In this document: in pieces, positions 10,921-15,832 of the stretch
How positions within the stretch are numbered: position 1 is the first letter of the stretch
Layout: every line of letters begins with the position of its first letter
Origin: Escherichia coli
GTDB lineage: Bacteria > Pseudomonadota > Gammaproteobacteria > Enterobacterales > Enterobacteriaceae
DNA length: 64,000 bases
Strand: one strand, 5' to 3'
Assembly: GCF_016903815.1 (NCBI RefSeq)
Contig: NZ_CP069973.1
Notes under the pieces: generated by a model
What the model was told of the DNA's origin: nothing
Database searches by the model: none
Seen by the model: the letters and a program-made list of their open reading frames with translations, nothing else
Program-made: the position numbers and the translations under genes

Positions 10921-12234
10921 TCAATCTTTTTTATCGGGATCAGGCTTCTTTTTAGGTAACTTCGGGGGCTTAACTTGCTGATGACTTTGCGTTCGGCGCG
11001 TAAGCCAGGGATGGTCAGCTTTAGGTTTAACATAGTATTTTGAGCGTAAATCAATACGGGCATTATCCACTCGTTCATGGACACTCTTTTCATCATCCAG
11101 TGGTATAGGCTCCGGGCCATCAACATACTTTTCCCAGCCCAGCGCTTTCCCGTCATACAGAACGTTAATTTCACCGTCAAAGTTCTCGCATACAGTAACA
11201 ACCGAATGCCTAAGTCGATATCCCCGGCCCTCACTGCGTACCTGAAACGCACTGCTTTTGTACTGGAAAGTGAGATTTTTAGACAGAACGCGCTTCGCCT
11301 GTAGGCTGAAGATATAACCCAGTTCCTCTTCAGAATGGTGCACATCAAGATGAGCATTATCAGTAGTACGAGGCGACGTAGCGAACCGGTTGTTATAGGC
11401 TTCAATAAAGGTCGGCAACCATGCATTTGCTGTTTCAATATCACTGATATTCTGAAGCCGCATTTCTTTGACCAGCCTGTCCTGTAGTGTCTGATTGGCG
11501 CGCTCTACCCGCCCTTTTGCCTGCGGGCTGTTGGCATGGATTGGCTCGATGCCCAGTGTCTTTATCGCACGAGTGAACTGGGTCAGCTCACCTTCCCGCT
11601 CTGGGTTATTTACCCTGAATATACTGTGTCTATCAGAGTAGAGAGCGAGCGGTACGCCATGATCATTAAGGTAACCCCGGAGGGTTTCCATGTAAGCCCG
11701 GGTTGTTTCAGCAGGCACAAAACGCAACGCCATCAACGCACTGGTGGCATCATCAATGAAAACGATCAGTGTACATCTGGGGCCTCGATTTTCAAACCAG
11801 TCATGAGGTGAGCCATCAATCTGGATCAGTTCACCGTAAGATGGTCGTCGCATGCGGCGTTGATATATACGGGCAATTTTACGACGGCGTTCACGCCATA
11901 ACCCCTCTTCTATCATCCACTTTCTGAGAGTTTCAACGGATAAAGATAAACCGTGTATCTCGCGCAATTTTTCGCACGCAAACGTAGGTCCAAAATCAGC
12001 GTAACGGCCTTTGAGGAGTGAAATTACTGTTGCTCTGAATTCAGTAGAAAAGGAATTATTAGGACGCTTTCCACGTCGGTGGGAAACCAGACCAGAAGGC
12101 CCTTCATTTCTATACCGTTGCACCAGACGTTTAACCTGCCGAATAGAAATGCCAATGCGTGCCGCAGCTTGTTCCTGAATAATCTGAAGTCGGTGGAGTT
12201 CCTTATGACTCATCGTAACAGTCTCTTTGATCAT
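10921..12234 (-). CDS. DDE transposase with N-terminal HTH and rve-type integrase core (IS481/ISNCY-like, family unresolved)
   Basis: 437-aa ORF; the rve/RNase-H-type core is inferred from the overall layout of the protein (segments such as IQIDGSPHDW, LIVFIDDATS, ALYSDRHSIF) and was not verified by a profile search; alternative start at 12213 (MSHKEL). Confidence 0.8.
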   Translation of the reverse strand: MIKETVTMSHKELHRLQIIQEQAAARIGISIRQVKRLVQRYRNEGPSGLVSHRRGKRPNNSFSTEFRATVISLLKGRYADFGPTFACEKLREIHGLSLSVETLRKWMIEEGLWRERRRKIARIYQRRMRRPSYGELIQIDGSPHDWFENRGPRCTLIVFIDDATSALMALRFVPAETTRAYMETLRGYLNDHGVPLALYSDRHSIFRVNNPEREGELTQFTRAIKTLGIEPIHANSPQAKGRVERANQTLQDRLVKEMRLQNISDIETANAWLPTFIEAYNNRFATSPRTTDNAHLDVHHSEEELGYIFSLQAKRVLSKNLTFQYKSSAFQVRSEGRGYRLRHSVVTVCENFDGEINVLYDGKALGWEKYVDGPEPIPLDDEKSVHERVDNARIDLRSKYYVKPKADHPWLTRRTQSHQQVKPPKLPKKKPDPDKKD

Positions 12235-12717: not shown

Positions 12718-13746
12718 TTACGCCTTAATAGGGTTAATCACATTTCCGCTATCCGTACCATAGTATTTTTTTGTAGTCATGCCTTGTTTATAATAATCAT
12801 TTAACAGTTTGAGAAAGTTTCTTCCTTGCCTCTCATCTTCTATGACTAATTTACCATGCTCATTGGTCTTAAACTCTTCGTTCTGAAACATTTTTAGCAC
12901 ATCATTCATAGCTTGAACATCATTCTTTTCCAGAACCGTATGGTTACCTTTCTCAGCGATATGAGTGAGAATTTTTCTCAGTGATGGCTTATGAAGAATA
13001 GCTTGTTCAATAACATCTAAACCTTCAATAAGATCAAGTTCTTTAATTGTATTTAATGTTTTTTGTGCAGCTTCTGTAAACTCAACCTCCAAGCCTACAA
13101 TAGCCTCAAAACTTTTCTTATGAAATACATAAAATTGATCTTTTATATAAATACAATCGATTTTGTCATCAAAATTGACTGCGCTGCCATCAAATGATCT
13201 TAACTCTTTATCTGTTTTATCAAACAAAGCGAATACGCGCTGAGTCATATTTTGTGGTTCATTTGTTGTGACTTTCCCCCTGCTGATTTTTCGGAAAGAA
13301 TAAGTGACGTCAGCCCCCTTTTGGACTTTAATACAATAGGCCCACAAATCATTCTGAACCTCAGCAAGAGAGGTAAGTACAACTGGTTTATCATTCTTTA
13401 TATCGTTATTAATAACTTTTGAAAACGATATCGCGTTATTCATAGCATAGGCATAAATTTTATTATCAATATCATCATCAATAACAGTATGCTTTTTCAT
13501 CACAATATCATCTTTCGAAGCATGAGAAATAATCTGGTTTGATAAAGTATACTTAAAAAATTTAGCAATATCTGGAGCGATTGGAGCTTTAATGATTTTA
13601 AAATCGAATTTATCAACAACTCTTGCGGTTCTACTCATACCCGCTTTAAGATGTCTAGTAATGAAATACAACGATATTTTCGCCGCATCATCATCCTTAA
13701 GTTGCTCAGCATACTCTAATAATTCTTCAAGCTTTAACATTTTCAT
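12718..13746 (-). CDS. Soluble 342-aa protein, candidate Kiwa KwaB-like (DUF4868-like) defense component
   Basis: Second gene of an AT-rich two-gene operon, 4-nt overlap with the upstream membrane-protein gene; family assignment by architecture only. Confidence 0.55.
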   Translation of the reverse strand: MKMLKLEELLEYAEQLKDDDAAKISLYFITRHLKAGMSRTARVVDKFDFKIIKAPIAPDIAKFFKYTLSNQIISHASKDDIVMKKHTVIDDDIDNKIYAYAMNNAISFSKVINNDIKNDKPVVLTSLAEVQNDLWAYCIKVQKGADVTYSFRKISRGKVTTNEPQNMTQRVFALFDKTDKELRSFDGSAVNFDDKIDCIYIKDQFYVFHKKSFEAIVGLEVEFTEAAQKTLNTIKELDLIEGLDVIEQAILHKPSLRKILTHIAEKGNHTVLEKNDVQAMNDVLKMFQNEEFKTNEHGKLVIEDERQGRNFLKLLNDYYKQGMTTKKYYGTDSGNVINPIKA

Positions 13747-14357
13747 TCCTTATGGGATTCAGCATAAAAAAGTTTTGGGCCCACGTCCTCAACATCAAGA
13801 AGATCATCTTCCTCCAAATACTTTGATTTAGTCAAAACCATACCAGTGCGTTTTTTGTCGCTTTCTAAATCCAAATATGTAACTTGATATAAAGTATAAT
13901 TAATACTTATTGTAGGATTTATAAGTATCATGCTTGAATTAATATATATTAAAGCCGTTACCGTTAACAATATTGCTATAGGTATAACATTAGTTAAAGT
14001 GGATAGATCCTGAAATACAAACGGAATTATATATGTAAAAAGATAGCTTATTGATTCATTGTTTTTATTTTCAATATCTATAACTCTTACAGTTCTACCA
14101 CTAGTGGCGCATCGACGTTTTATATTTTTTAAAAAAATTGTTAATCCTACAATACCAAATAATGATAATACACCAATGACACTGACCGCGCCAAAGTATT
14201 TAAAGAAAATAGTTAATGATTCAACACTTATACCTTTCCAATTTAAATAGCTTCTATAAGTATACAATTGCACAAAACACATGATAAAGAATAGGGGAAG
14301 GTATGACACTATAAATAGCGAAACTCTAGCACCTAAATGTAGTTTATTTACTCTCAT
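13743..14357 (-). CDS. Four-helix integral membrane protein, candidate Kiwa KwaA-like
   Basis: 204 aa with four hydrophobic segments (about residues 12-32, 55-76, 103-115, 125-140) and an acidic C-terminal tail; -10-like TAAAAT about 30 nt upstream. Confidence 0.55.
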   Translation of the reverse strand: MRVNKLHLGARVSLFIVSYLPLFFIMCFVQLYTYRSYLNWKGISVESLTIFFKYFGAVSVIGVLSLFGIVGLTIFLKNIKRRCATSGRTVRVIDIENKNNESISYLFTYIIPFVFQDLSTLTNVIPIAILLTVTALIYINSSMILINPTISINYTLYQVTYLDLESDKKRTGMVLTKSKYLEEDDLLDVEDVGPKLFYAESHKE

Positions 14358-14470
14358 AACTACCCCACAGCCTACACGTCTAGTATTTTATGTTATTTCG
14401 AATAATTATGCATCAGATTACCATCCTACAATTGTGCATAAAACGAGCATTTTGCTGATTTTTCTGCGGA

Positions 14471-14500
14471 TGCCTGAGACAGACAACCTCAAGCACCCGC
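14471..14500 (+). repeat. Direct repeat copy B flanking the kwaAB-like cassette
   Basis: TGCCTGAGACAGACAACCTCAAGCACCCGC, about 80 percent identical to copy A over 30 bp, same orientation. Confidence 0.6.
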
Positions 14501-14565
14501 AGCAATTTTACTTAACTCCCGCTACCTCGCCAATATGAAATCAATAAGAAAGGTGCTCCATAAAA

Positions 14566-15252
14566 TCACTCCTTCTCTTCTTTATCGTAGTGGAGTTGAC
14601 CAATTTTGATAAGAGGGCGTCCCTGAGATTTGCGGTGTAGATTGGTATCGCGCAGAGAATACACACAGCCACAATATTCCTGCTGATAGAATTTTTCGCG
14701 CTTGCTGATTTCAATCATGCGGGACGAGCCGCCCTGCTTGCGCCAGTTATAATCCCAGTACACCATGCCCGGATAATGCGCGACGGCTCGCCGCCCACAG
14801 TCGTTAACCTGCTGCATATTTTTCCAGCGTGAAATGCCCAGTGAACTGCTGATCACACTGAAACCATTTTCAGCAGCGTACAGCGCTGTCCGCTCAAAAC
14901 GCATGTCAAAACACATGGTACAACGGATCCCCCTCTCGGGCTCCCATTCCATTCCTTTGGCACGTTCAAACCAGTTGTCTGTGTCGTAATCAGCATCAAT
15001 AAATGGCACGCCGTGTTGTTCAGCAAAGCGAATATTCTCATCCTTACGAATTAAATACTCTTTCTGAGGATGAATGTTCGGGTTGTAGAAAAAGATGGTA
15101 TAGTCGATTCTCGAGGCCTGAAGTGCCTCCATCACTTCACCGGAACATGGAGCACAGCAAGAGTGCAGTAGTAGTTTGTTTGCCCCGTTTGGGAGCTCCA
15201 ATTTAGGCCGTTTGAAATCAGCAATAGTCATAAATATTTTTATTGGGGTCAT
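14566..15252 (-). CDS. QueH-like (DUF208) epoxyqueuosine-reductase homolog
   Basis: N-terminal [11 protein letters not shown] motif plus further conserved Cys (CTMC, CGC); alternative start at 15231. Confidence 0.65.
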
Positions 15253-15433
15253 AAAAATAGCACAGAGTGTGGCATCAGAGCAGGGCTATCGGGAATAGAT
15301 GTCTAAATCTGGTAATATCTGCTTTTGACGCATAGCAGACAACCACGCTAGCTCAATCCTGTGCCGTGAAAATGTCAATTCACATCTGAACTAATGCTCT
15401 TTAATCTAGTTACGTCTATAAATAACGAAAATT

Positions 15434-15832
15434 TCACTGATAAAATGCCAGTATGCGCTGCATAACTTCGCTCTTCCGGCACTCACAGCAAATTATGTTT
15501 TGGTGCCTGTCATAACGACGTATTTCTCCGTCAGGTAATGACCAGATAAGGTCCGGATCAACCACAGATGTTTTCTTCACCTTTGCCCTCGAGAGTTTTT
15601 TGCGGGCGTTTTGCCAGTCCTTACGAGCCTGTTCAGACGGGAATAACCCGTAGCCAGAGTTATATACATCACCACTGGCAACCAGCTCTCTGGCGAGAAC
15701 GCTCATCAGATATCTTGTCGCACCTGTCTTGGCTTCCAGTTGCCGTAACGTCTCGCGCCCACTCCGGCGTACTAGCTCAACAACCTGCCCCTTGATTTTT
15801 TCCCGCTCTTCTTGTGTAAAAACTTTTGCCAC
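15434..15832 (-). CDS. Hypothetical prophage early protein (132 aa)
   Basis: ORF downstream of the replication gene on the same strand; CCxC motif near the C-terminus. Confidence 0.45.
   Translation of the reverse strand: MAKVFTQEEREKIKGQVVELVRRSGRETLRQLEAKTGATRYLMSVLARELVASGDVYNSGYGLFPSEQARKDWQNARKKLSRAKVKKTSVVDPDLIWSLPDGEIRRYDRHQNIICCECRKSEVMQRILAFYQ

Follow-up and report, generated by a model that had tools for sequence, protein, structure and literature searches.

An intact QueH gene in lambdoid prophages of Escherichia coli: a predicted cobalamin-independent enzyme to complete queuosine

A gene carried by a lambdoid prophage of Escherichia coli is confirmed by its sequence features as a genuine, intact QueH, and we consider it likely that the product is a functional enzyme, captured by a phage, which would provide a B12-independent route from epoxyqueuosine (oQ) to queuosine (Q) in the lysogen or the infected cell. 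The gene lies in the window, by which we mean the whole stretch of 64,000 nucleotides that was analysed (contig NZ_CP069973.1 of RefSeq assembly GCF_016903815.1). Its protein is typical of a characterised family, and RefSeq already gives it the right name. The role proposed here, that of a B12-independent oQ reductase in about 20% of E. coli, extends known biology: a large minority of the species, including the laboratory B lineage REL606, has a prophage-delivered enzyme predicted to perform the last step of queuosine synthesis without B12. In the literature that we searched for prophage- or phage-borne QueH in E. coli, we found no paper on this gene. Table 1 lists the features of the locus.

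Table 1. QueH and its neighbours in the window, with the basis of each assignment
Feature	Position in window	Strand	Basis
KwaB (DUF4868) of Kiwa; RefSeq 'Kiwa anti-phage protein KwaB-like'	12718..13746	-	PADLOC, E 5e-158
KwaA, membrane protein of the Kiwa anti-phage system, cargo downstream of QueH	13743..14357	-	PADLOC, E 1e-101
About 96 bp after the QueH stop, common to other QueH prophages	14470..14565	-	blastn of flanks
QueH CDS, 221 aa from the probable start	14566..15231	-	ORF, PGAP start and name, Pfam PF02677, PDB 7lc5, invariant columns, dN/dS
Intergenic DUF977-QueH, 181 bp	15253..15433	-	Consensus scan: no sense-strand promoter or terminator
DUF977 ('Ren-like') gene, last of the replication module	15434..15832	-	Annotations of five independent prophages

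The original prediction placed the gene at 14566-15252 and described an open reading frame with a cysteine motif of 10 residues near its N-terminus. Both are present in the translation of the window: in the ORF list, an intact minus-strand ORF runs from 15252 to 14566, stop codon included, and encodes 228 aa, with the motif at residues 28-37. The ORF itself thus exists as described, but its start probably lies elsewhere. The in-frame ATG at 15252 opens the longer, 228-aa ORF; in RefSeq/PGAP the identical gene begins with the second ATG, at window position 15231, which gives 221 aa, and the chromosomal QueH homologues start at the equivalent position. Therefore the shorter CDS in Table 1 is the more likely one, and we take it as the probable QueH CDS. 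The name 'epoxyqueuosine reductase QueH' was given in RefSeq on every match row that we read (about 60-65 rows from E. coli genomes). On the other hand, PHROGs assigns the protein only to phrog_3217, which is labelled 'unknown function', and its identity is therefore missed by phage annotation pipelines. For example, the record of phage HannyBb labels QueH as 'hypothetical protein'. A search of NCBIfam release 20, which may contain no QueH model, returned no family at E <= 0.01 for the protein (14569-15252), and PADLOC returned no match for it.

A profile search bore out the predicted membership of the QueH family (PF02677 / IPR003828, formerly DUF208). The Pfam QueH model PF02677 matched the protein over its full length (E 4e-65, 219.6 bits, model positions 1-174 of 175), and phmmer found the Thermotoga maritima QueH in PDB (7lc5_A, E 2.8e-22, query 27-203 against chain 4-178). 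The family alignment consisted of 39 sequences, namely the window protein, Thermotoga QueH, 3 close homologues and 34 cluster representatives at 35-70% identity. All 15 of its invariant columns are kept in the window protein (C32, C33, N59, E65, R69, E106, R110, C111, C114, K144, Q191, C194, G195, C196 and S199), together with the near-invariant C36, which is conserved at 90% or more in the same alignment. The conserved family cysteines had been predicted as well, and none of these Cys ligands is lost. The set is complete, with all 7 positions kept, in the form of CCxxC near the N-terminus, CxxC in the middle of the protein and CGC near the C-terminus. The Thermotoga QueH structure of Li et al. 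from 2021 reportedly binds a [4Fe-4S] cluster and an adjacent iron; the window protein keeps the residues that are candidate ligands for such a cluster and iron.

Thermotoga QueH has Asp13 at the position of Cys36, and this substitution was considered as the mark of a divergent subfamily. The idea was rejected, since most of the family has Cys at this position, namely 223 of the 227 relatives carrying the H-x-C-C motif. CCxxC is the family norm and Cys36 is therefore not a deviation. In PDB entry 9dco the residue at Thermotoga position 13 is Asn, which suggests that the depositors probed this residue.

The gene is widespread in the species. Together with its flanks it matched 1094 of the 5426 complete E. 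coli genomes, and the CDS alone matched 1046, in 984 of which at least 80% of the gene was covered. In these genomes QueH is nearly always a single copy, and the copies are nearly all chromosomal. REL606 (E. coli B) has an intact QueH at 94.5% nucleotide identity in a Qin-like prophage (1620376-1621041 of its record), and the other carriers include an O157:H7 strain and an O25b:H4-ST131 strain. Among viruses, the isolated temperate phage HannyBb carries QueH at 94.7% amino-acid identity, and a relative was found in 186 viral contigs of IMG/VR, the best 80 of the 186 being 99-100% identical. The description of QueH as non-canonical cargo was thus an overstatement: about 20% of complete E. coli genomes have the gene, and it is annotated as QueH in all the rows that were read. 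That QueG is the regular enzyme of E. coli proved correct: queG is found in 5425 of the 5426 complete genomes, and REL606 has both queG and queH. As a core-genome queG is already there, QueH would be an accessory second enzyme for this pathway step.

A distant QueH fragment was also noticed on plasmids, with 62 weak matches in E. coli at 67-74% nucleotide identity, including O55:H7 and O103 plasmids. On the O55:H7 plasmid pDEC5B-4 (L004 6125-6280) it is a 51-aa ORF annotated as QueH, which lies amid IS debris and the genes of the T3SS effectors espT and nleG. A second, plasmid-borne QueH in E. coli was rejected, as the one copy inspected is this 51-aa remnant.

E. coli has no de novo synthesis of cobalamin. 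The final queuosine step through QueG has been shown to be cobalamin-dependent (PMC4646009, citing Frey 1988), and QueH is a non-orthologous, cobalamin- or cobamide-independent alternative to QueG in this last step (PMC6461909, PMC5372724). In the mechanism that we propose, the Fe-S centre of QueH would reduce oQ34 to Q34, at the wobble position of tRNA-Asp, -Asn, -His and -Tyr, without cobalamin. Because QueG needs a cofactor that the cell does not make de novo, the prophage would thereby supply a B12-independent route to Q-tRNA, and queuosine completion in the lysogen or the infected cell would be freed from imported corrinoids. A lambdoid lineage would have captured a chromosomal queH, which now stands downstream of the replication module, after DUF977, in several lambdoid backbones, where it is probably part of the early-rightward transcription unit. 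The best reading of the protein is that it may modify host tRNA. We infer its activity on E. coli tRNA, the timing of its expression and a fitness benefit when B12 is scarce.

Selection on the gene was evaluated from five phage and prophage alleles: those of the window, phage HannyBb, REL606, the Rac-like prophage of strain M114 and an O157:H7 prophage. It was found that dS ranges over 0.03-0.45 and dN over 0.002-0.025, giving dN/dS of 0.05-0.09 between alleles separated by a dS of 0.1-0.45. The prophage QueH alleles are under strong purifying selection. These values bear directly on the view that QueH is a neutral passenger or a decaying remnant without current function. Such a view is encouraged by the duplication of the queG function in nearly every genome, by the defective state of many of the host prophages and by the remnant on the inspected O55:H7 plasmid, but it does not agree with the low dN/dS, with every conserved residue being intact, with the coverage of at least 80% of the gene in most of the CDS-positive genomes, or with the retention of QueH across several lambdoid backbones (Qin-like, Rac-like and the O157 prophage). 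We therefore regard the passenger view as very unlikely.

At one position the window allele differs from the other alleles examined, with Arg41 (QASRIDY; about 15110-15112, codon 41 of the 228-aa ORF) in place of Gly (QASGIDY). Position 41 is Gly in most of the family and is not invariant, as Lys, Asn and Asp also occur. The Arg41 allele is common to at least 25 genomes at 100% identity.

The nearest relatives outside E. coli are named QueH and come from Erwinia, Providencia, Proteus, Photorhabdus, Pantoea, Gibbsiella, Dickeya and others. The chromosomal proteins of Providencia, Photorhabdus and Pantoea are 78-83% identical to prophage QueH, and that of Erwinia up to 85%; the chromosomal gammaproteobacterial proteins also have the same length and the same tails. 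Three of these loci were inspected. The Providencia gene lies between tmcA and an ABC transporter, near purC, the Photorhabdus gene adjoins benE, and the Pantoea gene is flanked by a regulator and a P-type ATPase. Each of the three stands alone in an ordinary chromosomal context with no phage genes nearby, whereas the prophage gene follows the replication module of lambdoid prophages and its GC3, 0.53, is E. coli-like. Between prophage and chromosomal QueH dN is 0.13-0.17, compared to 0.14-0.19 among the chromosomal genes themselves. The prophage gene is thus no further from the chromosomal genes than these are from each other. On the simplest reading, a phage lineage would have captured an enterobacterial-type chromosomal queH long ago.

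The setting of the gene agrees with its description as prophage-encoded. Over the 1021 bases compared around QueH, the window matches E. coli strain 7/2 with 100% identity, and in that strain the gene is part of a lambdoid prophage with integrase, repressor, replication and lysis genes together with lambda-like head and tail genes. This QueH prophage is Qin-like and adjoins rspAB/ynfA. The gene order starts with integrase, excisionase, exonuclease and dicB, followed by a cI-like repressor on the plus strand. Next, on the minus strand, come the Cro-like and YdaT/cII-like genes, the O-like replication genes and the DUF977 gene, and then QueH, KwaA and KwaB. An ISNCY element, flxA, relBE, hokD, rem, DUF968 and the antiterminator follow after Kiwa, and the lysis genes and the lambda-like head and tail genes form the end. 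From the annotations of five independent prophages, the DUF977 gene is the constant upstream neighbour of QueH, across differing replication and immunity modules.

In the window the prophage part covers 1-26714 and contains several IS elements and a relBE/hokD/flxA block resembling that of K-12 Qin. The IS elements are an IS1 at the start of the window, IS200C, a truncated ISNCY (about 11191-12234) and, flanked by xis and int, an IS66 unit. The window prophage may be defective, though lambda-like head and tail genes are kept. No tRNA genes were found within the window.

The gene content of the prophage also bears on the suggestion that QueH relates to 7-deazaguanine nucleic-acid chemistry, more specifically to the modification of phage DNA. 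Queuosine-pathway genes are known on phages for DNA modification (PMC6884629, PMC10516641). However, such a modification requires a DpdA/TGT-like transglycosylase and the preQ0 synthesis genes (FolE, QueD, QueE, QueC), and none of them is annotated in the complete prophage, of about 53 kb, at the strain 7/2 locus. QueH, moreover, acts after QueA, on the epoxy-cyclopentanediol ring, and to our knowledge this group is not part of known DNA modifications. The suggested link was therefore not borne out, and we give a role in phage DNA modification next to no credence.

For the expression of QueH, a simple consensus scan found no sense-strand promoter in the upstream gap and no terminator on either side of the gene, although a weak promoter belonging to QueH could escape so crude a scan. 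After the QueH stop there is a single consensus-level promoter-like site, from 14533 to 14505, but it is no better than chance. Upstream of the QueH start codons, only 28-49 bp are common to the Rac-like M114 prophage, and 124 bp are common to REL606 and HannyBb. The most economical inference is that QueH would be transcribed within the early-rightward operon.

Early-right expression on induction or infection could also mean that QueH serves the phage in lytic growth, where higher Q would improve the translation of phage mRNA, with no benefit to the lysogen. QueH shares its strand and position with the delayed-early genes (cro, cII-like, O-like and DUF977), neither a promoter nor a terminator was detected in between, and a 2026 preprint (doi 10.64898/2026.03.05.709803) describes altered queG expression and Q levels upon phage infection in Shewanella, which points in the same direction. 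Nevertheless, there is no NAT-codon bias by which the phage genes would profit, the NAT/(NAT+NAC) values being 0.566 for late and 0.566 for early prophage genes compared to 0.551 for host genes. Also, QueH is kept under purifying selection in IS-ridden Qin-like prophages, and that of REL606 has truncated neighbour genes; such retention fits host-level selection. A purely lytic role is thus unlikely in our view. Prophage QueH might also be a true lysogenic-conversion factor, expressed in lysogens and making queuosine completion cobalamin-independent there. We hold this only tentatively and with more doubt than confidence: the scan around the gene revealed neither a sigma-70-like promoter nor a terminator, which leaves expression uncertain in the repressed lysogen and weakens the conversion idea.

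It remains to consider the genes downstream of QueH. The original prediction placed QueH next to a defence cassette, and KwaA and KwaB indeed follow directly downstream on the same strand. By blastn, homology to the O157:H7 Z1626 prophage stops 96 bp past the QueH stop, near 14470, and the same 94 bp from the 3' flank of QueH recur further downstream in REL606 and HannyBb. The QueH prophages become homologous again at a conserved ORF ('MAHxTKxHNSD...', about 90 aa), which precedes the DUF968 gene. The slot between these borders, at about 12718-14470 in the window, was surveyed in 73 loci, consisting of 72 IMG/VR loci and the window. It is empty in 35 loci. In 12 it holds a Dcm-type methyltransferase and an NgoMIV-like restriction enzyme, in 7 Kiwa, in another 7 a different nin region and in 5 RmrT/RmrA, in two variants; the other 7 loci have contents found once each (among them a Doc toxin, a ParD-family antitoxin with an unassigned partner and a putative lipoprotein, and IS elements). 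Related prophages outside the census have other neighbours again, with hokD following QueH in REL606, a TehB-family gene in the slot of the Rac-like M114 prophage, and no Kiwa beside QueH in O157 Z1626. The Kiwa genes are AT-rich, with a GC3 of 0.26 compared to 0.53 for QueH and 0.47-0.59 for the rest of the prophage, and their NAT/(NAT+NAC) is 0.86. A recent foreign origin of Kiwa therefore fits.

This distribution largely refutes a tie between QueH and the defence cassette, whether as a Kiwa accessory, as an anti-defence factor or as protection against tRNA-targeting nucleases. QueH does adjoin KwaA and KwaB on the same strand, and defence or toxin-antitoxin genes recur in the neighbouring slot. 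But Kiwa occupies fewer than a tenth of the loci surveyed while nearly half of the slots are empty and others have varied cargo, hokD takes its place in REL606, the GC3 values of Kiwa and QueH lie far apart, QueH has no PADLOC match, and its closest homologues are lone chromosomal genes of a housekeeping type. As the same QueH adjoins quite different cargo, or none, in other prophages, a functional tie is not supported, and we regard it as extremely improbable. Judged from the shared flanks, QueH forms the conserved left edge of a cargo hotspot and is neither exchangeable cargo nor a Kiwa component. It therewith offers a handy conserved anchor for a lambdoid cargo slot that swaps Kiwa, restriction-modification, RmrTA and toxin-antitoxin genes, although no new kind of system is involved.

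We return to the tentative reading of QueH as a lysogenic-conversion factor. If it is true, about 20% of E. coli (E. coli B, O157:H7, ST131-type) would differ from K-12 in oQ/Q when B12 is scarce, with knock-on effects for NAU/NAC decoding and possibly for biofilm, virulence and phage-host interplay. The Qin prophage of K-12 presumably lacks the QueH region. Since QueH is in REL606 and presumably not in K-12 Qin, the B and K-12 lineages may differ in the B12 dependence of queuosine completion. Also, the work done in K-12 on oQ/Q, queG mutants and cobalamin may not transfer to the QueH strains, because these have a predicted second enzyme.

Compared with the characterised enzyme, T. maritima QueH (7lc5), the prophage protein is only 33% identical, but the six shared Cys and the remaining invariant residues occur in both. 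A leader of about 20 residues at the N-terminus and a basic tail of about 25 residues at the C-terminus are found in prophage QueH and its gammaproteobacterial homologues and not in the Thermotoga protein. The same chemistry, from oQ-tRNA to Q-tRNA without cobalamin, is expected for prophage QueH. When compared with the moron genes and defence hotspots of lambdoid phages, QueH is likewise an accessory metabolic gene on temperate phages, and it lies beside a slot where defence and toxin-antitoxin genes are exchanged; it may differ from moron genes, as the simple consensus scan detected no promoter or terminator of its own. The E. coli enzyme QueG performs the same pathway step as QueH (PMC5372724), and both occur in the same genomes. 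QueG is unrelated to QueH in sequence and is cobalamin-dependent (PMC4646009), and it is a core gene, whereas QueH is an accessory gene in about 20% of genomes. The pairing of QueG and a B12-independent QueH would resemble other pairs of B12-dependent and B12-independent enzymes.
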